64,000 bases of DNA from Bacillota bacterium (GCA_014896375.1 JADBKN010000009.1:75088-139087), one strand, 5' to 3'; positions 14,984 to 50,416 are shown, counted from the stretch's first letter. Notes: generated by a model not told the origin, from the sequence alone. Numbers and translations are program-made.

Positions 14984-15832
14984 GTGCGCGTCGCGGTGCT
15001 CGTCAACGCGGAGAAGCCCCGCGCCATCGAGGTGGCGGAACGGCTCAGCGCCTGGCTGCGGGAGCGCCGGGTGGAGCCGCTGACCACCCCGGAGCTCTCG
15101 GGCCTCGTGCGCGGGGCGGAGGCCCTGCCGCCGTCCCGCTGGGGCGATGCCGCCTTCGCCGTCGTGCTGGGCGGGGACGGCACGCTCCTCCAGGCGGCGC
15201 GCCAGCTCACGCCGTATGGCGTGCCGCTCTTGGGCGTCAACTTCGGCCACCTCGGCTTCCTCACGGAGCTCGAGGCGGCGGAGCTCTTCACTCGCCTGCC
15301 GGAATTCCTTGAGGGCCGCTGTCTCGTGGATGAGCGCAGCCTGCTCGGCGCCCGCGTGCTGGAGGAGGGCTCCGGCCCGCCGCGGCTCGCGTTGAACGAC
15401 GCGGTCGTGAGCCGCGTGCCGTTCTCGCGGCTGCTGCAGCTCGAGGTGTACGCCGACGACGACCCCGTCGCCACCTACCTCGCCGACGGCCTCATCGTGG
15501 CCACACCCACCGGCTCGACGGCCTACTCGCTGGCCGCCGGCGGGCCCGTGCTGGACCCCAGCCTGCGCGCGCTCGTCGTCACGCCGATCTGCGCCTATTC
15601 CTTCGGATCGCGGCCGATCGTCGTGCCGGCCGAGCGGCGCATCCGCGTCCGCCTCGCGGGGCCGGCGCGGGACGTCGTCCTCACGCTGGACGGGCAGGAT
15701 TCGCGGTCCCTGGAGCACGGCCAGACGGTCGAGGTGTCCATCGTGGAGCCGCGCGTGCGGCTCCTGCGCCTGCCCGGCTGGAACTTCTACTCGGTCCTGC
15801 GCCGCAAGTGGGCGGAGGGAACGCGCGCATGA
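14984..15832 (+). CDS. nadK: NAD(+) kinase
   Basis: GGDGT motif (VVLGGDGTLLQAAR) and NAD-kinase fold segments (…GVNFGHLGFLTE…). Confidence 0.9.
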   Translation: MRVAVLVNAEKPRAIEVAERLSAWLRERRVEPLTTPELSGLVRGAEALPPSRWGDAAFAVVLGGDGTLLQAARQLTPYGVPLLGVNFGHLGFLTELEAAELFTRLPEFLEGRCLVDERSLLGARVLEEGSGPPRLALNDAVVSRVPFSRLLQLEVYADDDPVATYLADGLIVATPTGSTAYSLAAGGPVLDPSLRALVVTPICAYSFGSRPIVVPAERRIRVRLAGPARDVVLTLDGQDSRSLEHGQTVEVSIVEPRVRLLRLPGWNFYSVLRRKWAEGTRA

Positions 15833-17556
15833 GCGGCGTCGTCCTGAGGGAGCTGCGCGTGCGCGACTTTGCGATCGTCGACGAGGTCGCGGTGACGTTC
15901 GCCGACGGGTTCAACGTCCTCACTGGGGAGACCGGCGCCGGCAAGTCGATCCTCATCGACGCGTTGAGCGTGGCGCTCGGCGGGCGCGCGGCGGCCGACC
16001 AGATCCGCCAGGGCGCCGAGGAGGCGTCGGTCGAAGCCGTCTTCGAGATCCGCCAGGAGGACCACCCCGCGGTGGCGCAGCTGCGCGCCGAGGGCCTGTA
16101 CGAGCCGGGCGAGGGGCTCGTCGTGCTCGGGCGCACGCTCTCCGCCAGCGGCCGGCACCTCGCGCACGTCAACGGCCGCCTGGCCACGGCACGTCTTCTG
16201 CGGGAGATCGGCAGCCAGTGGGTGGAGATCCACGGCCAGCACGAGCACCAGCACCTCTTCCTGCCGGCGCGCCAGCGCGACCTGCTCGACGGCTTCGCCG
16301 GCGAGGCTGCGCTTGAGGCGCGGCGGCGCGTGCGCGAGGCTTTCCAGAGGTGGCGGGAGATCCTCGCGGAGCGCGCGCAGCTCGCCGGCGACCCACGTGA
16401 GCGCGCGCGGCAGGAGGATCTCCTGCGCTTCCAGCTGAGTGAGATCGACGCCGCGCGCCTGCGGCCCGGCGAGGAGGAGGAGCTGGCCGCGCGGCGGCGG
16501 ATCCTGCAGCACGCGCAGCGGCTCTTTGAGGTGGCGGCCGGCGCCCACCAGCGGCTGGCGGAGGGCGGCCAGCCCGGGGGCGCCCTGGCGGACGCCGCCA
16601 GCGCCGTGGCGGAGGCAGTGCGCCACGCCGCCGCCATCGACCCGCGCCTCGACGGTGTCCGCGCCCTCCTGGAGGACGCCGTCACACTCCTGCGGGAGGC
16701 GGCGCGCGAGTTGCGCGCCTACCGGGACGGCTTGCAGTTCGAGCCGGAGGAGCTCGCACAGATCGAGGAGCGCTGGGACCTCATCAGCCGGCTCAAGCGC
16801 AAGTACGGCGAGACGGTGGAGGAGATCCTCACCTACCGCAACGAGGTGGCCGCCTCCCTAGATGCGTATGCGCGCCAGGAGCAGCGCGCGCGCGCGCTGG
16901 ACGCGGAAGAAGCGGCCGCGCGGGCGGATCTGGCGGCGGCCTGCCGGGAACTCTCGCGCCTGCGCCGGGAGGCCGGCCTGCGCCTGCAGGAGGCGGTCGG
17001 CCGCGAACTCGAGGCGCTCGCCTTCCCGGAGGCCGCGTTCCGCGTGGACGTGCGGCCGCGTTGGAAGGATGGGCCCGACGGGCGGGAGCCCGACGCCGAC
17101 GCCTCCGGCGCGGACGATGTCGAGTTCCGCCTGGCCGCCAACCCCGGCGAGGAGCCGCGCCCGCTGCGCGCCGTCGCCTCCGGCGGCGAGCTCTCCCGCA
17201 TCATGCTGGCCGTCTGCGCCAGCGCCGCCGCGGCGCTGGACGTGCCGGTGCTCGTCTTTGACGAGATCGACGCCGGCGTGGGCGGACGCACCGCGCAGGC
17301 CGTGGCCCAGCGCCTCGCGGCCCTCGGGCGTCACCGGCAGGTGCTGTGCGTGACGCATCTCGCGCAGATCGCCGCGCGCGCCGACCACCACCTCGCCATC
17401 CGCAAGCGGCTGCGGCGCGCGCGCGCGAGCGTCGCCGTGGCCGGCGTGCGCGGCGCCGAGCGCGCGCGCGAAATCGCGCGCATGCTGTCCGGCGGCGATT
17501 CGCCGGCCGCCCTGCGCCATGCCGAGGAGCTCTTGCAAAACCTGGAATCGACCTGA
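15829..17556 (+). CDS. recN: DNA repair protein RecN
   Basis: ATG overlaps the nadK stop (ATGA). N-terminal Walker A FNVLTGETGAGKSILIDAL, long coiled coil and C-terminal SMC-like signature. nadK-recN-spoIVB-spo0A order as in Bacillus. Confidence 0.9.
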   Translation: MSGVVLRELRVRDFAIVDEVAVTFADGFNVLTGETGAGKSILIDALSVALGGRAAADQIRQGAEEASVEAVFEIRQEDHPAVAQLRAEGLYEPGEGLVVLGRTLSASGRHLAHVNGRLATARLLREIGSQWVEIHGQHEHQHLFLPARQRDLLDGFAGEAALEARRRVREAFQRWREILAERAQLAGDPRERARQEDLLRFQLSEIDAARLRPGEEEELAARRRILQHAQRLFEVAAGAHQRLAEGGQPGGALADAASAVAEAVRHAAAIDPRLDGVRALLEDAVTLLREAARELRAYRDGLQFEPEELAQIEERWDLISRLKRKYGETVEEILTYRNEVAASLDAYARQEQRARALDAEEAAARADLAAACRELSRLRREAGLRLQEAVGRELEALAFPEAAFRVDVRPRWKDGPDGREPDADASGADDVEFRLAANPGEEPRPLRAVASGGELSRIMLAVCASAAAALDVPVLVFDEIDAGVGGRTAQAVAQRLAALGRHRQVLCVTHLAQIAARADHHLAIRKRLRRARASVAVAGVRGAERAREIARMLSGGDSPAALRHAEELLQNLEST

Positions 17557-17716
17557 TTGGCAGCCGCGCACGACGTCGCCAGCATATGCGCCCGCCGTTT
17601 CGGGCACGTTACGCCTAGCCGTGGTCCGGCAAGGCGTTTTTTCATGCAAAGACCGCCTTGCGGACCAAAAGGAGGTGAGGCGAGGGGCCGAATCCAGACC
17701 GGGAGCGTGATGACAA

Positions 17717-19036
17717 TTGAATCGACGCGTTCGGCGCTGGGTCGGACTCGTCCTGGCGCTCGCCGTGCTCGGTGTGGGTTTCACGCCCCCGTACCGCACG
17801 CTGGAGCGCCTGCCGGCGGAGCTGCAGCTGGCCTCCGGCGCGGAGGCCGCGCTGGATCTGGCCGGCCGCGGCTTCCTGGCCGTCCGCGGCGACCGCCCGC
17901 AAGGCCTCGTCGTCGACGGTACGCCCCTCGGCACCGAGTGGCGCGCCGTGCGGCACGACGTCCTCCGCCTGACGGCGCGCGGCACCGGCGTCACGCATCT
18001 CCAGGTGGCGCTCTTCGGCTGGCTCCCGCTGCGCACCGTCACCGTGGATGTGCGTCCCACGGTCACCGTGGTGCCCGGCGGGCAGGCGATCGGCGTCGTC
18101 CTCCACAGTGACGGTGTGGTCGTCGTCGACGAAGCCGGGTTGCGCGACCGCGACGGGCGCGTGCGGCACCCCGCCCAGGAGGCGGGAGTGCGCGTCGGCG
18201 ACGTGATCGTCGCCGTCAACGGCGCCGAGGTGGCCGACAAGGAGGACGCCGCGCGCAAGATCGACGCGGCGGCGCGCAGCGGGCGGCCGATCGCCCTCAC
18301 CGTGCGGCGCGACGGCCGCATCCTCACCCTCTCCGTGCAGCCTGTGTGGGACGTGCGCGCCGGGCGCTATCTCGTCGGCGTGTGGATCCGCGACGGCGCC
18401 TCAGGCGTCGGCACGCTCACCTTCTACGACCCGCAATCGCGCCGTTTCGCGGCGCTCGGCCACGTGGTGAGCGACAGCCGGACGGGAGAGCCGTACGAGA
18501 TCCGCGACGGCGAGATCGTGGGCGCGATCGTTAGCGACATCGACCGCGGCAGCGCCGGCTCCCCCGGGGAGAAGCTGGCCGTCTTCGTGGGGCGGCGGCA
18601 GCCGCTGGGGACCCTGGAGAAGAACACGGAGGTCGGCGTGTTCGGGCGGCTCCTGAACATTCCCGACGGCGGCGGCGCGCCTGTACCCATCGCGCTGCCG
18701 CAGGAGGTGCACACGGGTCCCGCCGTGATCCGTACGGTGCTGCACGGGCAGAAGATCGACACGTTCGATGTGGAGATCGAGCGCGTCGCCCTGCAGGACC
18801 GGCCCGCGGGCAAGGGGCTCATCGTCCGCGTCACCGATCCGCGGCTCCTGCGGGAGGCCGGGGGCATCGTCCAGGGGATGTCGGGCAGCCCCATCCTTCA
18901 GGACGGCAAGCTCGTGGGGGCCGTGACCCACGTGTTCGTCAACGATCCCACACGCGGTTACGGCGTGCTGGCCATCTGGATGGCGGAGGAAGCCGGTCTC
19001 CTGACGACGTCGAGGGCGGCCGCCCCGGGGTTCTGA
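17717..19036 (+). CDS. spoIVB: Stage IV sporulation protein B (SpoIVB, S55 serine peptidase with PDZ domain)
   Basis: TTG start. PDZ region (…GVRVGDVIVAVNGAEV…) and S55 peptidase body (…GTLTFYDPQSRRFAALGH…GMSGSPILQDGKLVGAVTHVFVNDPTRGYGV…). Confidence 0.9.
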   Translation: MNRRVRRWVGLVLALAVLGVGFTPPYRTLERLPAELQLASGAEAALDLAGRGFLAVRGDRPQGLVVDGTPLGTEWRAVRHDVLRLTARGTGVTHLQVALFGWLPLRTVTVDVRPTVTVVPGGQAIGVVLHSDGVVVVDEAGLRDRDGRVRHPAQEAGVRVGDVIVAVNGAEVADKEDAARKIDAAARSGRPIALTVRRDGRILTLSVQPVWDVRAGRYLVGVWIRDGASGVGTLTFYDPQSRRFAALGHVVSDSRTGEPYEIRDGEIVGAIVSDIDRGSAGSPGEKLAVFVGRRQPLGTLEKNTEVGVFGRLLNIPDGGGAPVPIALPQEVHTGPAVIRTVLHGQKIDTFDVEIERVALQDRPAGKGLIVRVTDPRLLREAGGIVQGMSGSPILQDGKLVGAVTHVFVNDPTRGYGVLAIWMAEEAGLLTTSRAAAPGF

Positions 19037-27508: not shown

Positions 27509-27627
27509 CGAACCTTCCCCCTGATCACGGTTGCAGGACCGTCTGGTTTTATGTTGAATACACCCCCGGCGCTTGAATAAAGTTGCCTGCCGTGGGTCAC
27601 GCTACCACCGGCGAAGGGGGACCACCG

Positions 27628-28512
27628 ATGGATGCGCTGATCGACGAGTACCTGGAATACCTCCGCGTGGAGAAGGGGCTCGCCTACAACACCCTGGACT
27701 CATACCGGCGTGACCTGCGCGACTACGCACGCTTTCTCGCGCGCCGCAACGAGACGCCCACGGCGGCCACGCGTCAGGCGGTCGCCGCCTACCTTGTGGC
27801 GCTGACGCGCCAGGGCCGCGCGGCCTCGACGGTCGCGCGCCGCCTGGCGGCGCTCAAGTCCTTCTACCAGTTCCTCGTGCAGTCGCAGCGGCTGGCCCAG
27901 GATCCCACGGTGGAGCTGGAGTCGCCGAAGCAGAAGAAGCGCCTGCCGCGGGTGCTCACGGTGAAGGAGATCGAGCTTTTGCTTGCGCAGCCCGACCCGT
28001 CCACGCCCGCCGGCCTGCGCGACTCCGCCATGCTGGAGCTTCTCTACGCCTCGGGGATGCGCGTCTCGGAGCTCGTGAGCCTCAACTGCGACGACGTCTC
28101 CCTGGACCTCGGCTATCTGAGATGCGTCGGCAAGGGCGCGAAGGAGCGCATCGTCCCCATCGGCTCGCTGGCCGTAGAGGCCGTCCGCCGGTACCTTGAG
28201 GAGGGGCGCCCGGGTCTTGTGAAGGATCCGCGCCAGACGGCGCTTTTCGTCAACCACCACGGCGGCCGCCTCACGCGCCAGGGCTTCTGGAAGCTCATCA
28301 AGAAGTACGCAAAGGACGCCGGCATCGACAAGCCGATCACGCCGCACATCCTGCGCCACTCTTTCGCGACGCACCTATTGGAGAACGGCGCGGACCTGCG
28401 CGCCGTGCAGGAGATGCTGGGCCACGCCGACATCTCCACCACCCAGATCTACACGCACCTGACGCAGAGCCGCATCAGGGACGTGTATTCCCGCGCGCAC
28501 CCGAGGGCCTAG
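27628..28512 (+). CDS. xerD: Tyrosine recombinase XerD (RipX-like)
   Basis: …LIDEYLEYLRVEKGLAYNTLDSYRRDL… core-binding domain. Catalytic residues R…K…HxxR…Y (…HILRHSFATHLLENGADLRAVQEMLGHADISTTQIYTHL…). Confidence 0.85.
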   Translation: MDALIDEYLEYLRVEKGLAYNTLDSYRRDLRDYARFLARRNETPTAATRQAVAAYLVALTRQGRAASTVARRLAALKSFYQFLVQSQRLAQDPTVELESPKQKKRLPRVLTVKEIELLLAQPDPSTPAGLRDSAMLELLYASGMRVSELVSLNCDDVSLDLGYLRCVGKGAKERIVPIGSLAVEAVRRYLEEGRPGLVKDPRQTALFVNHHGGRLTRQGFWKLIKKYAKDAGIDKPITPHILRHSFATHLLENGADLRAVQEMLGHADISTTQIYTHLTQSRIRDVYSRAHPRA

Positions 28513-41692: not shown

Positions 41693-42316
41693 GTGAACCC
41701 CGTGAGCTGGCCGGCCGCCATCCTCGCCATGGCCGCCCTCGCCGCCGCCGCGCTGCTTCTGCCGCTGCGGCTGGGACTGCGCCTGCGCTGGGAGGAGCGT
41801 CCGGCGCGGCGCGAGGGTGCCGTCGAGTGGCAGCTCGGGCCGATCGCGGGGTCGCAACCTCTGCCGCTGCCGGCTCCCTTGCCGCTCAGCTGGGATCGGC
41901 TGGACGACCTCGCGCGAGAGGCGCTGCGCTGGGTTCGCGAGGTGCGGGAGCACGTGCCGGAGATCGTGGCCGGTGGCGTGACGATCGGCGGCGCACGGCT
42001 GGAACGGCTGGAGGTGCGCGTCCAGGTCGGGGCGGGCGACGCCGCGGCGACGGCCGTCGCCTGCGGCCTCGTGCACGCCGCGCTCTGGCCGGCGCTCGCG
42101 CTCGCCGCGCGCGCGTGGCGCTTCCGCGGCCGGCCGCTAGTCGTCGTCCAGCCTGACTTTTCACCGCTGCCCGCGTGGATCGTGGAAGGCCACTGCATAT
42201 GGTCCTGGCGGCTCGGGCACCTTATAGCCGCTCTCGGGCGGATGGCGCTGGCACGCCTTGCGCGTGCCGCCGCCCGCTGGGTCCAACGCCTGCTCGTGGA
42301 GGTGCGCCCGTCTTGA
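41693..42316 (+). CDS. Sporulation-associated membrane protein, YtfI/DUF2953-like
   Basis: GTG start. N-terminal TM and ~200 aa. Directly precedes and is coupled to ytfJ, as in the Bacillus ytfI-ytfJ pair. Family call by context and size only. Confidence 0.45.
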   Translation: MNPVSWPAAILAMAALAAAALLLPLRLGLRLRWEERPARREGAVEWQLGPIAGSQPLPLPAPLPLSWDRLDDLAREALRWVREVREHVPEIVAGGVTIGGARLERLEVRVQVGAGDAAATAVACGLVHAALWPALALAARAWRFRGRPLVVVQPDFSPLPAWIVEGHCIWSWRLGHLIAALGRMALARLARAAARWVQRLLVEVRPS

Positions 42317-42810
42317 GTGAGCACGCCATTCAAGGGCTGATGCAGACCGCGATGGAGTCCCTCAAGGGCATGATCGACGTGAACACGGTCGTCGGCGACG
42401 CCGTGGAGACGAAGGACGGCACAGTGATTGTGCCGGTGTCGCGCGTGGCCTTCGGTTTCGCGGCCGGCGGCAGCGACTGGCCGCATGCGCGCGGAGAGTC
42501 GCACCCCTTCGGGGGCGGCAGCGGCGCCGGCGTGTCGGTGCAGCCGGTCGCCTTCCTCGTCGTGAGCGGCAGCGCCATCCGACTTCTGCCGGTCGGCGAC
42601 CGCGGCACCGTGGAACGCCTCCTGGACATGACGCCGGAGGTGCTCGACCGGCTCCAGGGCGTGCTGCACAAGAACGGCGGCGCGCGGCGCGGCCACCCGC
42701 GCGGCGGCTCGCCGGCGCCGGCGGGCGCGCCTGCGGCCGCGGCGGAGTTCGACGGCTCGACGTCGACCGGCGGGACGAACTCCCTGGAGCGGCCGTACCC
42801 GACCGTCTGA
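42313..42810 (+). CDS. ytfJ: Sporulation protein YtfJ (GerW family)
   Basis: TTG start overlapping the previous stop (TTGA). N-terminus LSEHAIQGLMQTAMESLKGMIDVNTVVGD… matches the highly conserved YtfJ start MSEHPIQGLMKTAMENLKEMIDVNTIVGD. Confidence 0.8.
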   Translation: MSEHAIQGLMQTAMESLKGMIDVNTVVGDAVETKDGTVIVPVSRVAFGFAAGGSDWPHARGESHPFGGGSGAGVSVQPVAFLVVSGSAIRLLPVGDRGTVERLLDMTPEVLDRLQGVLHKNGGARRGHPRGGSPAPAGAPAAAAEFDGSTSTGGTNSLERPYPTV

Positions 42811-42838
42811 TCCTTAAGCCACGGACCCACGCACGCCC

Positions 42839-42870
42839 GGCGCCCCCGCGAGGGGGCGCCGCCCTTTCTT
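42839..42870 (+). terminator. Intrinsic terminator after ytfJ
   Basis: Perfect 9-bp stem GGCGCCCCC / GGGGGCGCC with a GCGA tetraloop, followed by GCCCTTTCTT. Confidence 0.55.
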
Positions 42871-42939
42871 CCACCATTTGTGTCACATGGCCCGATGCCG
42901 GCCCAGGCACGTTATGGCCAGGACGGAGGGTCGTGCGCC

Positions 42940-43740
42940 ATGCGCAGCATCTGGAACGGCGCCCTGAGCTTCGGGCTCGTGCACATCCCCGTGCGGCTCT
43001 TCTCCGCCACGGAGGATCGCGACGTGCACTTCCGGCAGCTGCACCGCGCCGACCACACGCCCATCCAGTACCGGCGCCACTGCCCGGCCTGCGGGCAGGA
43101 CGTGGGGCCCGAGGACATCGTGCGCGGCTACGAGTACCTCCCGGGCCAGTTCGTCGTGCTGGAGGACGAAGACTTGGAACAGTTGCCGCTCCCCACCCAG
43201 AAGACGATGGAGATCCTCGACTTCGTCCGCGTGGAGGAGGTCGATCCGATCTACTTCGAGCGCTCGTATTTCATCGCCCCGGCCGAGGGCGGCGCGCGCC
43301 CGTTCGCGCTCCTGCGGGCGGCGATGGAGCGCACGGGGCGCGCGGGCCTCTGCCGCGTGGCGCTGCGCGCCAAGGAGCGCCTCGGGTTGGTGCGCCTCTA
43401 CCAGGGAAGGGCCCTGGTGCTCGAGACGCTGCACTACCCGGACGAGATCCGGCAGCCGGAGGGGCTGGAGGAGCTGGAGCGGCTGCCGGCGCCGTCGGAG
43501 AGGGAGCTCGTGATCGCCGAGCAGCTCGTGCAGAGCCTCGCTGTGCCGTTCCAGCCGGAGCGCTACCGCGACCGTTACCGCGAGGCCCTTCAGGAGCTGA
43601 TCGAACGCAAGGTGGCGGGGCAGGAGCTCGTGGCGCCGGCGCGCGCGGAGGAGACGGTGCCCATGGACCTGCTGGCGGCCCTCGAGGAGAGCGTGCGCCG
43701 GGTCGAGGCGCAGCGCGCCCTGGCTGGGCGCACGGGCTAG
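42940..43740 (+). CDS. ku: Non-homologous end joining protein Ku
   Basis: ATG with GGAGGG RBS. MRSIWNGALSFGLVHIPVRLFSATEDRDVHFRQLH… is the canonical bacterial Ku core. ~266 aa. Confidence 0.9.
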   Translation: MRSIWNGALSFGLVHIPVRLFSATEDRDVHFRQLHRADHTPIQYRRHCPACGQDVGPEDIVRGYEYLPGQFVVLEDEDLEQLPLPTQKTMEILDFVRVEEVDPIYFERSYFIAPAEGGARPFALLRAAMERTGRAGLCRVALRAKERLGLVRLYQGRALVLETLHYPDEIRQPEGLEELERLPAPSERELVIAEQLVQSLAVPFQPERYRDRYREALQELIERKVAGQELVAPARAEETVPMDLLAALEESVRRVEAQRALAGRTG

Positions 43741-44790
43741 ATGCGGACCGCGGACGGGGGCGCGCCGGCCTGGCCCGTGCCGCCGCAGGCGATGGAGCCG
43801 GTGCTCTGGCCGGAGGCGTTCGACGACCCGCGCTTCGCCTTCGAGATCAAGTGGGACGGCATCCGCCTGCTCACCTGGGCCGGGCGCGGCGGGCTGCGCG
43901 CCGTCACGCGCCGCGGCCGCCGGCGCGAGCACGCCTATCCGGAGCTGGCCGCTCTGGCGGGAGGCCCGGAGGCCGTCTTCGACGGCGAGATGGTCGTCTT
44001 CGTGCGCGGGCGCCCCTCATTTCCGGCCGTCCTGCGCCGCGACCGCGCCTCCGAGCCGCGCGCGGTGGAGCGGCTCGCCCGCGCCTGGCCCGCCGTGTAT
44101 CAGGTCTTCGACCTCCTTTGGGAGGGCGGCCGCGACTGGCGCGCGGCACCCTGGGAGGAGCGGCGCGCGCGGCTGGAGCGGATCCTTGAGGGGCGCGGCG
44201 GGAGCGTGGCGCTTGTGCAGGCGTGGCCCGGGGAGCGCGGGCGCGCGCTCTTTGAGGCGGCGGCCGGGCTCGGTCTTGAGGGCGTCGTGGCCAAGGAACG
44301 GGCGAGCCCCTACCTGCCCGGCCGCCGCAGCGGGGCGTGGCGGAAGATCAAGGCCTGGAGGGAGCGCGACGCGGTGGTGGGCGGCTACCTCGAAGGTGTG
44401 GAGGGCCTCGCCTCGCTGCTGGTCGGCGCGTATGAGGGCCCTGCGCTGCGCTATATCGGGCGCGCCGGGTCGGGGCTGAACGCGCGGGAGCGCCAGGCGC
44501 TGCGCGCCCTCTTGGACCGCGACCGCCGGGCCTCGTGCCCGTTCGAGCCGGAGCCCGCGAGACTGCCGTCGCCGCCTGTATGGGTGGAGCCGCGGCTCGT
44601 GGCGCGGGTGCGGTATCTCGAGTGGACGCCGGAACTTCTGCTCCGGGCGCCGGTGGTGATCGCCGTGCGGGAGGGCGACCCCCACGCCTGCCGACTGGAG
44701 GACGGGGATCTGGAGGTGAAGGGCGATGGCGAGGGGCGCGGAGACGACGGTCTGGGTGGACGGCCGTCGCCTCGCCCTGCGCAACCTTGA
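43741..44790 (+). CDS. ligD: ATP-dependent DNA ligase (LigD ligase domain)
   Basis: Starts 1 nt after the ku stop. Adenylation-domain motifs (…FEIKWDGIRLL… motif I Lys, …FDGEMVV…, …EGVVAKERASPY…, …WRKIK…) and an OB domain. Confidence 0.85.
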   Translation: MRTADGGAPAWPVPPQAMEPVLWPEAFDDPRFAFEIKWDGIRLLTWAGRGGLRAVTRRGRRREHAYPELAALAGGPEAVFDGEMVVFVRGRPSFPAVLRRDRASEPRAVERLARAWPAVYQVFDLLWEGGRDWRAAPWEERRARLERILEGRGGSVALVQAWPGERGRALFEAAAGLGLEGVVAKERASPYLPGRRSGAWRKIKAWRERDAVVGGYLEGVEGLASLLVGAYEGPALRYIGRAGSGLNARERQALRALLDRDRRASCPFEPEPARLPSPPVWVEPRLVARVRYLEWTPELLLRAPVVIAVREGDPHACRLEDGDLEVKGDGEGRGDDGLGGRPSPRPAQP

Positions 44791-45643
44791 CAAGCCCTTC
44801 TGGCCGGAGGACGGCCTCACGAAGGGCCACATGATCCAGTACTACGAGGCGGTGGCGCCGGCCATCCTGCCGCACCTGGAGGGCCGGCCGCTCGTCGTCA
44901 CGCGCTATCCGGACGGCATCCGCGGCGAGTCCTTCTACCAGAAGAACCGGCCGCCGGGCACACCGGAGTGGGTGCCGATCTGGCCGTACTATTCGCGCGA
45001 GAGCGACCGCTGGCTCGGCTTCATCGTCTGCCGCGACCGCGCCACGCTGGTCTGGCTCGCGAACCAGGCGGCCGTCGAGCTGCACCCGTGGTACTCGCCC
45101 TGCACGCATCCGGAAGAGCCGGACTTCTGCGTCATCGACCTCGACCCCATGGCACCGGCCACCTTCGACGACGCGCGGGAGGTCGCGCTGGTCCTGCGCG
45201 AGTACCTGGAGCGGCGCGGGGTACGCGCGTTCCTCAAGACCTCCGGGGCCACGGGGCTGCACGTCTACATGCCGCTCGAACGCGGCTACACGTACCCGCA
45301 GACGGCGGCCGCCGTGCGCCGCCTGGCGCTGGCCTTCGTGCGCATGTGGCCGGAGCGCTGCACCGTGGAGCGCAGCGTGGAGAAGCGCGGCGGCAAGGTC
45401 TACATCGACTACCTCCAAAACCACATGGGGAAAACGCTCTGTGCGCCCTACAGCCTGCGGCCGTTGCCCGGCGCGCCCGTCTCCTGCCCGCTCGATTGGT
45501 CGGAGCTCGCCGGCGTGGACCCGCGCCGCTGGAACCTCCGCACCGTGCCCGAGCGCTTGCGGCGGCAGGGCGACCCATGGCGCGGCATCCTGGAGGAACG
45601 CCAGCCGCTGGAACTGCTCAGCGGCGACCCGGTGCGGGTGTGA
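44726..45643 (+). CDS. ligD: LigD polymerase/primase domain (PolDom) protein. It overlaps the ligase ORF by 65 bp in a different frame.
   Basis: …RLALRNLDKPFWPEDGLTKGHMIQYYEAVAP…, …ELHPW…, …FCVIDLDP…, …KTSGATGLHVYMPL… are AEP primase-polymerase motifs of the LigD Pol domain. Confidence 0.8.
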   Translation: MARGAETTVWVDGRRLALRNLDKPFWPEDGLTKGHMIQYYEAVAPAILPHLEGRPLVVTRYPDGIRGESFYQKNRPPGTPEWVPIWPYYSRESDRWLGFIVCRDRATLVWLANQAAVELHPWYSPCTHPEEPDFCVIDLDPMAPATFDDAREVALVLREYLERRGVRAFLKTSGATGLHVYMPLERGYTYPQTAAAVRRLALAFVRMWPERCTVERSVEKRGGKVYIDYLQNHMGKTLCAPYSLRPLPGAPVSCPLDWSELAGVDPRRWNLRTVPERLRRQGDPWRGILEERQPLELLSGDPVRV

Positions 45644-45657
45644 AGGAGGGGCGGGGG

Positions 45658-47220
45658 ATGGCGCTCGTTTGCCTCGACGAGGTCGCCGAGCGCTTCCGGC
45701 GTCGCGGCGCGTCGCTCTTCCCCTACCAGGTGGAGGCGGCGCGGCGCGTCGTCGAGGACATGGGCGGCAGCGGCATCCTCGCCGACGAGGTCGGGCTGGG
45801 GAAGACGGTGGAAGCCGGGCTCGTGATCCTGGAGCTCGCGCGGCGCGAGCGGGTGCGGGATGTGCTCGTGCTGGTGCCGGCCTCGCTCACGTACCAATGG
45901 CGGCGCGAGCTGGCCGAGAAGTTCGGCCTGGCCGCGCGCGCGCGCCTGGAGGCCGGCGGCCTCGTCGTGGCCTCGCTGGACACAGCGAAGCGCGGCGCCG
46001 CGGCAGAGGCCTGTCTCGGGCGCGCGTGGGACCTTCTGCTCGTCGACGAGGCCCACCGCCTGAAGAACCCGCGCACGCAGGTGCACCGCTTCACGGCCGC
46101 CCTGCGCCGCCGGCACACGGTGCTGATCTCCGCCACGCCGCTTCAGAACGACCTGACGGAGCTGCACGCGCTGGTGTCGCTCGTGCGTCCGGAGCTCTTC
46201 GGTGGCTTTGAGGAGTTCCAGCGGCGCTTCCTTCTCGACCGGCGCACGCCGCGCGATCCCGCCGCTTTGCGGGCACTTCTAGAGCGCGTGATGGTCCGCC
46301 ACAGGAGGGGCGACTTCCTGCCGGCCTTTCCCCGCCGCCATGTGCGGATGGTGCCCGTGGACCCCACACCGGAGGAGCGCGAGCTGTATGAGGCCGTGAC
46401 GGAGGCGGTGCGGGCCGAGTACTGGCGCCGCGTGGTGGACGGCGGCTCGGTGCTGCCGCTCATCGCGCTGCAGCGGGAGGCGTGCTCCAGCCCCGCCGCC
46501 CTGCGGGCGACGCTCGAACGCATGGGTGACGGCGATTGGCGGCGGCGCCACGGGCACCTCTGGACCCTCGCGGCGGCCGCGCGGAACCCCGCCAAGGCTT
46601 TGGCCTTGACACAACTCGTCCGCCGGATCGAGGGCAAAGTCCTCGTCTACACCGAGTTCCGCGCCACCCAGGAGGACATCGTGGCGCGCCTGCGCGCGGA
46701 CGGCGTGCCGGTGGCCGCCTTCCACGGCGGGCTCACGGCGGCGGCCAAGGACGAGGCGTTGCACGCCTTCGCCCAGAGGGCGCGCGTGCTCGTGAGCACG
46801 GAATGCGGCGGGGAGGGGCTCAACCTGCAGTTCTGCCGCCATCTTGTGAACTATGACCTGCCCTGGAACCCGATGCGCGTGGAGCAGCGCATCGGCCGCG
46901 TGCACCGGCTGGGCCAGGCGGAGGATGTGTGGGTGTACAATCTCTACGTCCGCGATACGATCGAGGAGGCCCTCCTCGATCTGCTCCACGAGAAGATCGA
47001 CCTCTTCAGACAGGTCGTGGGCGAGCTCGACGTGATCCTGCGCCAGCTGGAGCGGAAGCGCTCGTTTGAACGCACCATCCTGCACATCGCGCTGAGCGCG
47101 CGCGACCGGCGGGAGCTGGAGGCGCGCTTTGCGCAGCTCGGCGAGCAGATGGTGGAGGCGGGGCGCCGCGCAGGTGCGGGCGTCCCGGAGCCGGCGGGAC
47201 TCGGAGGTGGGCGGTCGTGA
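45658..47220 (+). CDS. SNF2-family DEAD/DEAH-box helicase (helicase core only, 520 aa)
   Basis: ATG with GAAGGAGGGG RBS. Motif I ILADEVGLGKTVEAG, motif II LLVDEAHRLKN, SNF2_N segment (…LISATPLQNDLTELHALV…), Helicase_C (…KVLVYTEFRATQ…, …LVSTECGGEGLNLQFCRHLVNYDLPWNPMRVEQRIGRVHRLGQ…). Confidence 0.85.
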   Translation: MALVCLDEVAERFRRRGASLFPYQVEAARRVVEDMGGSGILADEVGLGKTVEAGLVILELARRERVRDVLVLVPASLTYQWRRELAEKFGLAARARLEAGGLVVASLDTAKRGAAAEACLGRAWDLLLVDEAHRLKNPRTQVHRFTAALRRRHTVLISATPLQNDLTELHALVSLVRPELFGGFEEFQRRFLLDRRTPRDPAALRALLERVMVRHRRGDFLPAFPRRHVRMVPVDPTPEERELYEAVTEAVRAEYWRRVVDGGSVLPLIALQREACSSPAALRATLERMGDGDWRRRHGHLWTLAAAARNPAKALALTQLVRRIEGKVLVYTEFRATQEDIVARLRADGVPVAAFHGGLTAAAKDEALHAFAQRARVLVSTECGGEGLNLQFCRHLVNYDLPWNPMRVEQRIGRVHRLGQAEDVWVYNLYVRDTIEEALLDLLHEKIDLFRQVVGELDVILRQLERKRSFERTILHIALSARDRRELEARFAQLGEQMVEAGRRAGAGVPEPAGLGGGRS

Positions 47221-47921
47221 CGCGCGGCGCCTTTCAACTGGAGACGTATATCGAGCACACGTACCTGAAGCCCGAGGGCGCGGAGGCGGAAGTGCGCCGG
47301 CTGTGCGCCGAGGCGCTCCAGGGAGGGCTCTTCGGTGTGTGCGTGCAGCCCGCCTACGTGCGGGCGGCGCGCGCGGAGCTGGGGGAGAGCGGCGTGCGGC
47401 TGGTGGCGGTCGTCGGCTTCCCGCACGGCGCCAACCTCAGCGAGGTGAAGGCGTTTGAGGCGGAGCGGGCCGTCGCCGACGGCGCCGACGAGCTCGACAT
47501 GGTGGCCAACCTCGGTTGGGCCGCCGCCGGCGAGTGGCGCCGCGTGGAGCGCGACGTGGCCGCCGTGGTGGCGGCGGCGCGCGGGCGCCCGGTGAAGGTC
47601 ATCCTGGAGACGGGGCTGCTCGCCGATGAAGCGCGTGTGCGTGCGGCGGCGCGGGCGGCCCTGGCGGGCGGGGCGGCGTTCCTCAAGACGAGCACCGGCT
47701 TCGGGCCCGGAGGCGCCACTGTGGAGCACGTGCGCTGGCTGAGGGAGGAGGCCGGTTCCCGCGCGGGCGTCAAGGCGGCGGGAGGCATCCGCACCGCGGC
47801 CCAGGCGCTGGCGCTCATCGCGGCGGGAGCCGACCGCCTCGGCACGAGCCGCGGCCTCGACCTCGTCCGCGAATGGCGCGCGGCCGGCTCGCCGGCGCCT
47901 TCTGCACCCGGCTCCGGCTGA
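47217..47921 (+). CDS. deoC: Deoxyribose-phosphate aldolase
   Basis: GTG overlaps the helicase stop (GTGA). …GAAFLKTSTGFGPGGAT… Schiff-base lysine region and a class I aldolase TIM barrel. Confidence 0.85.
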   Translation: MTRGAFQLETYIEHTYLKPEGAEAEVRRLCAEALQGGLFGVCVQPAYVRAARAELGESGVRLVAVVGFPHGANLSEVKAFEAERAVADGADELDMVANLGWAAAGEWRRVERDVAAVVAAARGRPVKVILETGLLADEARVRAAARAALAGGAAFLKTSTGFGPGGATVEHVRWLREEAGSRAGVKAAGGIRTAAQALALIAAGADRLGTSRGLDLVREWRAAGSPAPSAPGSG

Positions 47922-48003
47922 CGTTGCCAAACCGGCTCTTGCAGGACTCGCCGCCATTCCACAGAATCTTCGCCAGGACAACCTAGGAAGGCAGGCGAAG
48001 ACG

Positions 48004-48849
48004 GTGAAGACGCTGCGCTATCGGAAACGCGCCGCGCTGGCCCTTTTGCTGGGCTTCGTGCTGGTCGCTGCGCTCGGCTGCGGCAGCCAGAAAGCACCCG
48101 CCTCGGAATCCGGCCAAGGCACGGCCACGGGCTCCGAGACGGCCTCGGAGGCGACGGACGACCTGGCCAAGATCAAGGCGGCCGGTAAGATCACCTTCGC
48201 CACGGACGGCGCCTACCCGCCGGACGAGTTCCTCGACTCGAACGGCCAGCTCGTCGGCTTCGACGTCGACCTCGGCAAGGCGATCGCGAAGGAGCTCGGC
48301 GTCCAGTATGACGTCAAGATCGTCGAATGGGACGGCATCATCCCGGGCCTCGTGACCGGCAAGTATGACGCCATCCTCAGCACGATGAACGACACCGAGG
48401 AGCGCCGGCAGCAGGTCGACTTCATCGACTACATCAGCATGGGCCAGGTCATCGTGGTCAAGGCCGGCAACCCGAAGCACATCCAGAGCCTCGATGACCT
48501 GAAGGGCAAGACGATCGCCGTGCAGACCGGCACGACGAACGCCGATGAGGCGAAGGGCATCGCGAACGCGAACGTCAAGCTCTTCGACACGTTCACGGAC
48601 GCGCTCCTCGCCGTGAGCAACGGCCAGGCGGACGCGACGATCCTCGACGAACCTGTGGCGCGCTATTACGGCAAGACGGCGCCGGACAAGTACGCCGTTG
48701 TGGGCCAGCCGTTCAACGAGGCGCCGGTGGGCATCGCCATCCGCAAGAACCAGCCCAATCTCAAGAAGGCCATCGAGGACGCGCTCCAGAAGATCCACGA
48801 CGACGGCACCTGGGACAAGATCTACGCCGCCTGGTTCGGCGGCCAGTAA
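48004..48849 (+). CDS. Amino-acid ABC transporter substrate-binding lipoprotein (PBP type 3)
   Basis: GTG start. Signal peptide plus lipobox (LVAALGCGS). Polar amino-acid binding fold (…KITFATDGAYPPDEFLDSNGQLVGFDVDLGKAIAKELG…). Confidence 0.85.
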   Translation: MKTLRYRKRAALALLLGFVLVAALGCGSQKAPASESGQGTATGSETASEATDDLAKIKAAGKITFATDGAYPPDEFLDSNGQLVGFDVDLGKAIAKELGVQYDVKIVEWDGIIPGLVTGKYDAILSTMNDTEERRQQVDFIDYISMGQVIVVKAGNPKHIQSLDDLKGKTIAVQTGTTNADEAKGIANANVKLFDTFTDALLAVSNGQADATILDEPVARYYGKTAPDKYAVVGQPFNEAPVGIAIRKNQPNLKKAIEDALQKIHDDGTWDKIYAAWFGGQ

Positions 48850-48933
48850 GCCAGCATTTGCGCCGCTGCGCGCGCGGGGGCGGCCGGGCGGCCGCCCCCG
48901 CCGCGTGCGCGGCGGCGTCGGAGGAGGATTCCC

Positions 48934-49617
48934 TTGCCCACGCCCCCGCTCGTCGGGCTCGATTTTTGGGGTGTACTCGTCAAGACGCTGCCATGGTTCG
49001 TGCGCGGCGCGGAGTACACGCTCTTTCTCACAGTGATCGGCAGCTTCTTCGGCGTGATCCTGGGGCTCCTGGCGGCACTCGCGCGCATCTCGAGCTTCGG
49101 ACCCACGCGCGCCCTGGGCACGTTCTACACGTGGGTTTTCCGCGGCACGCCGCTTCTTGTGCAGATTTGGCTCGTCTATTTCGGCTTGCCCTCACTGGGC
49201 TTCACGATCTTCAACAACGCCCTCTTCTCAGGTTCGGTGGCGCTCAGCCTGAACACGGGAGCGTACCTCGCCGAGGTCTTCCGCGCGGCCATCGAGTCGA
49301 TCCCGCGCGGGCAGATGGAGGCGGCGCGCTCGCTCGGCATGAGCTATGCTCAGGCGATGCGCCGCGTGATCCTGCCCCAGGGGATCCGCCGCATGATCCC
49401 GCCGTCGATCAACCAGTTCGTCGCTCTTCTGAAGGACTCTTCGCTCGTGGCCACGATCAGCGTGTGGGAGATCACCTTCGTCGCGAAGACGATCACCGCC
49501 GCCACGTTCCGCTCCTTCGACCTCTTCACGCTGGCGGCGCTCTACTACCTCGTCCTGACGACGCTCTTCACCACGCTCGGCGCGTGGGTCGAAAAGAGGT
49601 TGCTCGCGTATGAGTGA
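48934..49617 (+). CDS. Amino-acid ABC transporter permease (His/Glu/Gln/Arg/opine family)
   Basis: TTG start. EAA-like loop …[41 protein letters not shown]…. Confidence 0.85.
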
Positions 49618-50416
49618 ACGGAGGCCGATGATCCAGTTCGAGCATGTCGACAAGCGCTTCGGCAAGCTGCACGTGCTGAAGGACATCCACACGACGATCT
49701 ACGAGGGCGAGGTCGTCGTCGTGGCCGGCCCGAGCGGCTCCGGCAAGAGCACGCTCCTGCGCACGATCAACTACCTGGAGCCGATCGACTCCGGCCGCAT
49801 CATCGTCGACGGCCAGCCCGTGGGACCGCGCGTCGTCAACGGGCGCGTGGTGCCGCCCTCGCCGCGGGACATCGACCGGCTGCGCGCGCACGTAGGCATC
49901 GTCTTCCAGGCGTTCAATCTCTTCCCGCACATGACGGCCCTCGAGAACGTCATGGAGGGGCTCGTCACCGTGCGCCGCGTCGACCGGGACACGGCGCGCC
50001 GCACAGCCATGGAGATGCTGGAGAGGGTCGGCCTCGCCGACCGCGCCGACCACCGTCCCGCCAAGCTCTCCGGCGGCCAGCAGCAGCGCGTGGCCATCGC
50101 GCGCGCCCTGGCCATGCGGCCGCGCGTCATGCTCTTCGACGAACCCACCTCCGCCCTGGACCCGGAGCTCATCGGTGAGGTGCTCAACGTCATGCTCGAG
50201 ATCGCCAAGGAAGGCATGACGATGGTCGTCGTCACGCATGAGATGGGTTTCGCGCGCGAGGTGGCGGACCGCGTGCTCTTCATGGACGAGGGGCGCATCC
50301 TCGAAGACGCGCCGCCGGACGAGTTCTTCTTGCGGCCGCGCCATCCGCGGGCGCAGCAGTTCCTCTCGCGCCTGCTCTGGCACCGGGGGGCCGAGGACGC
50401 CGGGGCGCACGCGTAG
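49610..50416 (+). CDS. Amino-acid ABC transporter ATP-binding protein
   Basis: Overlaps the permease stop. Walker [10 protein letters not shown], signature [15 protein letters not shown], Walker [12 protein letters not shown]. Confidence 0.9.

Follow-up and report, generated by a model that had tools for sequence, protein, structure and literature searches.

As usually described, bacterial non-homologous end joining (NHEJ) consists of two proteins, Ku and LigD, for which very few helpers are known. It is an open question how Ku reaches DNA that is coated with protein in the spore, and another how Ku rings leave the DNA after ligation. A candidate that bears on both is found in a 64,000-nucleotide stretch of DNA from a Bacillota bacterium (GCA_014896375.1 JADBKN010000009.1:75088-139087), the whole of which is called the window here. 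In this stretch, the gene for a stand-alone SNF2-family ATPase lies on the plus strand directly behind ku and the genes for a LigD-type ligase and a LigD-type polymerase. A search of the searchable literature found no described link between an SNF2 protein and Ku/LigD, and what appears to be new is that this SNF2 gene has a conserved, tightly packed place within a Ku/LigD unit that lies behind forespore-type promoters. The NHEJ genes themselves are ordinary in type, although split and not fused, and the SNF2 protein comes, in trimmed form, from a known but uncharacterised family.

Parallels are known from Bacillus. In B. subtilis, ykoU and ykoV are forespore genes governed by sigma-G and SpoVT (PMC3656841). 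The B. subtilis gene yqhH is transcribed by sigma-F and was among the transposon-sequencing (Tn-seq) matches picked for delayed-sporulation tests (PMC4703394). A yqhH knockout of B. thuringiensis was sensitive to ultraviolet light, and the protein hydrolyses ATP (PMC10054049). B. subtilis YqhH has been called HepA/RapA-like (PMC7385302); in a 2025 review, it is ywqA and not yqhH that fills the rapA role in this species (PMC12448304). Two further B. subtilis genes have counterparts in the window, namely ytfJ, which is a member of the sigma-F regulon, and spoIVB, which is a sigma-F/G gene (PMC3416734).

The packed unit and its junctions

The window has a G+C content of ~73% and carries core sporulation and housekeeping genes, and it derives from a Firmicutes metagenome-assembled genome (MAG). 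Its SNF2 protein is 100% identical to MBE3589700.1, which is listed under 'Firmicutes/Bacillota bacterium'. The genes on the plus strand follow the order scpA, scpB, a ytfI-like gene, ytfJ/gerW, a hairpin terminator, ku, ligase, polymerase, SNF2, deoC, and an amino-acid ABC transporter. The features of the unit and its immediate surroundings are as follows.

42352 to 42810, plus strand: ytfJ (gerW), a sporulation gene and the constant upstream neighbour of the module, start codon approximate (PF09579, E 3.5e-30)
42838 to 42871, plus strand: intrinsic-terminator-like hairpin between ytfJ and ku with a T-rich tail; 10-bp all-GC stem at 42838-42861, loop GCGA
42885 to 42914, plus strand: forespore sigma-G-type motif ACATG-N18-CACGTTA, 26 nt 5' of the ku ATG (pattern scan)
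42940 to 43740, plus strand: ku, 266 aa, with the ribosome-binding site GGAGG at 42926-42930 (PF02735, E 2.6e-53; TIGR02772, 303.6 bits, cutoff 150)
43741 to 44790, plus strand: stand-alone LigD-type ATP-dependent ligase, 349 aa, with adenylation and OB domains and a KWDG motif (PF01068, E 1e-22; PF04679, E 3.5e-20)
44726 to 45643, plus strand: stand-alone LigD-type primase-polymerase, 305 aa (PF21686, E 1.6e-90; TIGR02778, 249.2 bits against 214.7)
45644 to 45649, plus strand: AGGAGG, ribosome-binding site of the SNF2 gene, 8 nt ahead of its ATG (read from the sequence)
45658 to 47220, plus strand: SNF2-family ATPase, 520 aa, consisting of a bare core of two lobes and a helical brace at the C-terminus (PF00176, E 5.5e-37; PF00271, E 2.2e-26)
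47217 to 47921, plus strand: deoC, deoxyribose-phosphate aldolase, 234 aa (equivalog TIGR00126, 236.5 bits, cutoff 117.3)

An initial annotation of this DNA had described five open reading frames (ORFs) on one strand, from ku to deoC, and both their coordinates and their family assignments were confirmed. Its account of the junctions was mostly right. The overlapping starts, the GTGA and the 14-nt gap with a strong ribosome-binding site were found as described, but the spacer between ku and the ligase is 0 nt and not 1 nt, since the ligase ATG begins at 43741, directly after the ku TAG (43738-43740). The ligase TGA (44788-44790) sits 65 nt inside the polymerase ORF, whose ATG at 44726 is preceded by GGAGG at 44711-44715. 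The 14-nt gap separates the polymerase TGA (45641-45643) from the SNF2 ATG at 45658, and the SNF2 TGA (47218-47220) overlaps the deoC GTG at 47217 as GTGA.

The hairpin upstream of ku is real, and its counterpart in the closest relative (L081) likewise has a hairpin and a T tract. As the initial annotation had it, no further terminator-like site was found on the plus strand between this hairpin and deoC. No promoter- or terminator-like site parts the SNF2 gene from the ligD genes in the window. A scan of 41.5-48.5 kb for sigma-70-like promoters and an Rfam search of 41-49 kb each returned zero matches. A perfect 11-nt inverted repeat with a 1-nt loop was observed within the SNF2 coding sequence at 46959-46981 (GATCGAGGAGG C CCTCCTCGATC). 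It was ruled out as a terminator, as it has no T tract and only a 1-nt loop.

The ligase scored 222.3 bits against the NHEJ-specific model TIGR02779, slightly under the cutoff of 227.75, and the catalytic DxD (DLD) and KTSG..G.H columns of the polymerase were unchanged across 8 orthologues. Profile searches of the ORFs of the cluster found no domain corresponding to the LigD phosphoesterase (3'-end-cleaning) module. Directly 3' of deoC, the genes of the amino-acid ABC transporter (48001-50000) have a G+C content of 0.66, against 0.72-0.76 in the surrounding DNA.

Gene order in relatives and forespore-type motifs

Close relatives, at 49-79% identity, were sampled one by one through the contigs that encode them. 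The order ku-(ligase)-polymerase-SNF2 was found to recur in seven other lineages. The full order ytfJ-ku-ligase-polymerase-SNF2 is present in a 79%-identical MAG that also has deoC (L081/L082), in Thermaerobacter composti (L083/L084), in Sulfobacillus thermosulfidooxidans (L086), in Hydrogenisulfobacillus filiaventi (L088), and in a metagenomic lineage (L171). Two further metagenomic lineages have ytfJ-ku-polymerase-SNF2 without a ligase gene in the cluster (L085, 8245-11653; L174, 4990-8632). The polymerase and SNF2 genes meet in an ATGA, GTGA or TAATG overlap, or in a 10-nt overlap, in L086, L088, L171 and L085. Ku of the window and Ku of Sulfobacillus share only about 35% identity; therefore, the gene order has survived a long divergence. 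The gene ytfJ adjoins either ku or the SNF2 gene itself in all ten related window-type lineages examined.

The gene that follows SNF2 varies by lineage and may be deoC, Gate, rhodanese, thioredoxin or DUF7088. The initial annotation had counted deoC in the module, and this part of its proposal was rejected, as deoC follows SNF2 only in the window and in the 79%-identical relative (L081/L082), where a 20-nt gap takes the place of the overlap; other genes stand there in L083, L085, L086, L088, L171 and L174. It can be concluded that deoC is a lineage-specific downstream passenger. A separate observation concerns the ligases of the Sulfobacillus-type clusters, which are short (257-277 aa) at L086 8312-9145, L088 8389-9162 and L171 5326-6117. 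They matched PF01068 only, with no OB-fold domain recorded, whereas the window ligase has 349 aa.

Upstream regions were scanned for forespore promoters. Few matches were obtained with the strict consensus patterns for sigma-F and sigma-G of B. subtilis, and a relaxed sigma-G-type pattern, NHATR-N17/18-CAYNNTA, was used. It matched four times in the 64-kb window, each time on the plus strand, against 0.32 +/- 0.56 matches expected from simulated sequence. Besides the motif before ku, the matches and the gene in which one of them lies are listed below.

41693 to 42316, plus strand: ytfI-like DUF2953 gene
42195 to 42224, plus strand: forespore (sigma-F/G)-type motif GCATA-N18-CACCTTA upstream of ytfJ, within the 3' end of the ytfI-like gene (pattern scan)
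17582 to 17611, plus strand: motif GCATA-N18-CACGTTA in the 160-nt gap between recN (15808-17556) and spoIVB (17717-19036)
27575 to 27604, plus strand: motif GAATA-N18-CACGCTA just 5' of a xerD/ripX-like tyrosine recombinase gene (about 27629-28512)

The motif before spoIVB sits where a forespore promoter is expected and served as an internal positive control. The motif before ku has the identical -10 element, CACGTTA. The initial annotation had proposed looking for a forespore (sigG-type) promoter at this place, and the motif found there is conserved in the closest relative, L081, in which the -35 and -10 elements are kept and the spacer has diverged. A similar motif lies 5' of ytfJ in four relatives (L081, L085, L174 and L089). 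Between ytfJ and ku there is no gap in Sulfobacillus and Hydrogenisulfobacillus, where the two genes abut or overlap, and ku would be read there from a motif upstream of the ytfI-like gene. The motif before the xerD-like gene suggests forespore expression of a chromosome-dimer resolvase.

Another feature was noticed upstream of the -35 element of ku, where a block (TCTTCCACNATTTGTGTNACATG) is common to the window (42868-42889) and L081 (5016-5043). The window copy of this block contains the near-palindrome TGTGTCACA. The conserved block with its near-palindrome could be a candidate site for a regulator.

The SNF2 protein and its family

The catalytic motifs of an SNF2 ATPase are intact in the window protein. 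Walker A (GLGKT), DEAH and motif VI (QRIGRVHRLGQ) were unchanged across 28 sequences. An AlphaFold2 (AF2) model built with 28 homologues reached a predicted local distance difference test (pLDDT) of 85.4 and a predicted template-modelling score (pTM) of 0.81. When this model was searched with Foldseek, the top match was the Sulfolobus structure 1z63 (E 1.4e-26), and CHD4, RapA, CSB and Mot1 all followed near E 1e-25. A Snf2 fold is thus predicted with confidence, complete with its helical insertions and its brace at the C-terminus. The stretch ahead of Walker A has only 41 residues, close to the median of 42 for the clade (n=79); therefore, the protein has no accessory domain.

Homologues are plentiful, as 7869 of the 8000 scored candidates fell at E <= 1e-10, and one of them was annotated YqhH. 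The window protein is 47% identical to a homologue from Alicyclobacillus macrosporangiidus that sits between gcvT and yqhG, and 39-46% identical to proteins of Bacillales loci that have yqhG downstream. The arrangement gcvT - yqhH - yqhG of B. subtilis matches the setting of the Alicyclobacillus gene. The window protein is therefore assigned to the YqhH family, of which it is a bare-core member. It does not have the N-terminal extension of this family, which places about 80-160 residues before Walker A; in the yqhG-linked clade, the median is 127 residues (range 82-158, n=15). The gene yqhG (PF11079), or an analogous partner gene, is absent directly downstream of SNF2 in the window and in all window-type loci.

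The ATPase cores of RapA are the closest solved sequences (E about 1e-38). The window protein was rejected as a RapA orthologue, however, as it scored 185.9 bits against the RapA model NF003426, whose cutoff is 576; only the ATPase lobes align, and there are no N-terminal RNA-polymerase-binding domains.

The wider family was reached by two broad scans, one of 80 genome-contig loci and one of 80 metagenome-contig loci. Both returned only distant members with 32-47% identity, and the close clade was not reached by them. Among the sources of these 160 loci are Paenibacillus, Bacillus sensu lato, Chloroflexota and cyanobacteria, and in 107 loci the sequence upstream of the SNF2 gene exceeds 3 kb. 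A partner gene lies directly downstream on the same strand in many of them, being a yqhG homologue in 59 loci and one of two other unannotated types in 9 and 33 loci. In Bacillales, this partner is yqhG (PF11079), which starts on the same strand usually no more than 150 nt after the YqhH-family gene (L001-L050 and others). In Chloroflexota, cyanobacteria and other phyla, two unannotated families of about 304 aa and 405 aa take this place, again on the same strand. Judged from gene order, a YqhH-family gene with a downstream partner looks like a widespread two-gene module. In a Limnochordales-type locus (L173, 222-6546), two divergent SNF2 genes (609 and 573 aa) lie beside spoIIP, and each is followed by its own unannotated partner; this arrangement is a duplicated SNF2-plus-partner module.

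Possible roles of the SNF2 gene and comparison with known systems

The best explanation of the locus, which is given about an even chance of being correct, is a forespore DNA-maintenance operon, in which ku, ligase, polymerase and SNF2 would form one transcription unit and an SNF2 translocase would be co-expressed with NHEJ. Transcription would start from the forespore-type (sigma-F/G-like) promoter predicted at 42885-42914, just 3' of ytfJ and its terminator. The unit would have been inherited in a deep-branching clade of spore-forming Firmicutes that comprises Sulfobacillus, Hydrogenisulfobacillus, Thermaerobacter and related uncultured lineages. Its SNF2 protein would be a minimal translocase on double-stranded DNA, with intact catalytic motifs, from which the N-terminal extension of YqhH and the yqhG partner would have been lost. 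The most likely task of this protein would be an ATP-driven movement along duplex DNA while the spore develops or germinates, and this sliding would push off DNA-bound proteins such as small acid-soluble proteins (SASPs), Ku rings and stalled polymerases. The SNF2 translocase probably clears DNA-bound proteins in this way, judging by the general behaviour of Snf2 cores. Such clearing would aid end joining as well as other repair, and it would not be restricted to NHEJ. Ku, ligase, polymerase and SNF2 would be made together for a spore chromosome that is dormant, present in a single copy and coated with protein. In favour of the operon are the tight junctions with no terminator-like or sigma-70-like promoter site inside it, the recurrent gene order kept over a long divergence while the genes after SNF2 differ, the excess of forespore-type motifs, the Bacillus parallels, and the intact catalytic motifs together with the confidently predicted Snf2 fold. 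Gene content, junctions, conserved order, promoter-like motif and family assignment are shown, and co-transcription, forespore timing and protein clearing are inferred.

Several observations weigh against this operon. The ku motif has a non-consensus -35 element (ACATG), and the window and L081 are the only places where it was found, the other lineages having no such motif upstream of ku. The SNF2 gene is intact in three lineages that have no NHEJ genes at the site. In L172 and L175, it directly follows ytfJ, with a 4-nt overlap and an 18-nt gap, respectively, and the upstream contexts are altered. In the third lineage (L089/L090), the 600-nt gap between ytfJ and SNF2 (L089, 9405-10000) holds a 54-residue remnant of the Ku N-terminus that is 46% identical to the Ku of L174 (E 2e-10). 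Therefore, NHEJ was lost by decay in L089/L090, while the SNF2 gene stayed intact. The same gap may also hold a frame-shifted trace of the Ku C-terminus. As SNF2 is kept without end-joining genes in three relatives, the motor does not depend on NHEJ. The neighbourhood comparison proposed in the initial annotation had a divided outcome, as the SNF2 gene adjoins ku/ligD in the seven lineages of close relatives, but Ku, ligase, polymerase, DeoC and YtfJ were encoded in none of the 160 distant loci within the fetched flanks. In addition, the order forms part of a longer block that is conserved as well (spoVA, lysA, scpA, scpB, ytfI, ytfJ ... spmAB-like, rluB). One ancestral event followed by general synteny, and not selection for NHEJ-SNF2 coupling, could therefore account for its retention, and the linked cases may all go back to the same ancestral arrangement within this block.

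These observations bear differently on the other explanations. One of them makes the SNF2 protein a dedicated accessory factor of NHEJ that works directly with Ku/LigD, either by stripping SASPs and other proteins from DNA ends so that Ku can be threaded, or by pushing topologically trapped Ku rings off after ligation. The translationally coupled polymerase/SNF2 junctions of several lineages speak for it, as does the retention of ku-polymerase-SNF2 even where the cluster has no ligase gene (L085, L174). The loss of the yqhG partner and the N-terminal extension in the clade is compatible with a change of partner, and a Ku-dependent helicase, mycobacterial UvrD1 (cited in PMC3656841), offers a precedent. 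The survival of SNF2 after loss or decay of ku and polymerase in three lineages, the position of ytfJ and not ku as its most constant neighbour, the 0 of 160 loci with an NHEJ association elsewhere in the family, and the possible single origin of the linked cases all argue against such a factor, which is considered unlikely. The same doubtful standing is given to the stronger proposal that the bare-core SNF2 translocase would be, in this clade, a third dedicated end-joining component, made in the forespore alongside Ku, ligase and polymerase. It would free broken ends of spore chromatin proteins or drive trapped Ku rings off repaired DNA, as a bacterial counterpart of eukaryotic remodeller-assisted double-strand-break repair. 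The initial annotation had suggested that the protein could act at Ku-bound ends in spores. Such an action keeps a low probability. The protein is not an NHEJ-specific invention, given that it belongs to the widespread YqhH family, and it persists after ytfJ in the three close lineages without NHEJ genes.

A rather unlikely alternative, which is still to be taken seriously, is that the neighbourhood carries no shared function. The SNF2 protein would then be a RapA/HepA-like factor acting on RNA polymerase or in general nucleoid dynamics, and an NHEJ cassette would have been inserted between ytfJ and SNF2 in an ancestor. The ytfJ-SNF2 pairs without NHEJ genes in differing upstream contexts and the deeply conserved synteny of the whole region agree with this account, and so do the RapA cores as the closest solved sequences and the description of YqhH as HepA/RapA-like (PMC7385302). 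However, the RapA model aligns with the core only and far under its cutoff (185.9 against 576 bits), the 41 residues before Walker A leave no RapA-type N-terminal RNA-polymerase-binding region, and the review mentioned above places the rapA role on ywqA (PMC12448304). The overlapping stop and start codons of polymerase and SNF2 in four lineages argue for co-expression at least. An origin in an anti-phage defence system of the DISARM DrmD, BREX BrxH, Zorya ZorD or Dpd DpdE type was also considered, as the PADLOC and NCBIfam models for DrmD, BrxH, DpdE and ZorD match the ATPase core. These scores are far under the cutoffs (DrmD 260 vs 610, DpdE 210 vs 500, and ZorD 94 vs 1500 bits). The matches cover only the generic helicase lobes of a protein half as long as the defence proteins, no partner defence genes lie nearby, and the surrounding synteny is of core sporulation and housekeeping genes. 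The defence reading was rejected on these grounds and is regarded as highly improbable.

Three observations argue that the SNF2 protein is not strictly an NHEJ component: its gene survives the loss of NHEJ, ytfJ is its most constant neighbour, and its family is associated with yqhG-like genes. The loss of yqhG and of the N-terminal extension in the clade, together with the tight coupling to the polymerase gene, leaves room for a partner change. An SNF2 gene in a forespore-type unit across cultivable genera such as Sulfobacillus and Thermaerobacter is a concrete and testable candidate, and the locus points to a possible function for the YqhH family of B. subtilis, which is uncharacterised. Should the association amount to forespore co-timing only, it still adds a member to the spore DNA-maintenance genes and still shows an NHEJ cassette inside a sporulation operon.

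Compared with ykoV (ku) - ykoU (ligD) of B. subtilis, the window has in common Ku, a LigD-type ligase and primase-polymerase, a predicted forespore-type promoter, and a cluster in which no phosphoesterase domain was found; the phosphoesterase module is optional in LigD and is absent in B. subtilis LigD. The window differs in that the ligase and polymerase are separate overlapping genes and not one fused LigD, in that the unit packs a fourth gene, SNF2, and in that it sits directly after ytfJ/gerW. In comparison with YqhH/YqhG of B. subtilis, the SNF2 protein belongs to the same family, the ATPase core and the C-terminal brace are equal in size, and both appear linked to the forespore, the window protein through the promoter-like motif upstream of ku. 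Unlike YqhH, it is without the N-terminal extension of roughly 50-120 residues (41 vs 82-158 residues before Walker A). Its gene lies behind ku-ligD, not beside gcvT, and is not followed by a yqhG-like gene.

More distant systems share the motor. In mycobacterial Ku-UvrD1, a motor protein is likewise associated with bacterial Ku/LigD end joining. UvrD1 is a superfamily 1 (SF1) helicase tied to Ku by physical interaction and genetics, whereas the motor of the window is of the superfamily 2 (SF2) Snf2 type and is tied by gene order only. E. coli RapA (HepA), the Swi2/Snf2 ATPase that recycles RNA polymerase, is the best-scoring solved sequence relative of the ATPase lobes, but it is 968 aa long and binds RNA polymerase through N-terminal domains, which are missing from the window protein. 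The SWI2/SNF2 core of Sulfolobus solfataricus (1z63), a minimal core of ~500 aa that binds double-stranded DNA, aligns over residues 18-466 of the window protein; it is archaeal, shares 22% identity, and is a crystallised core fragment, not a natural stand-alone protein of the window's family.

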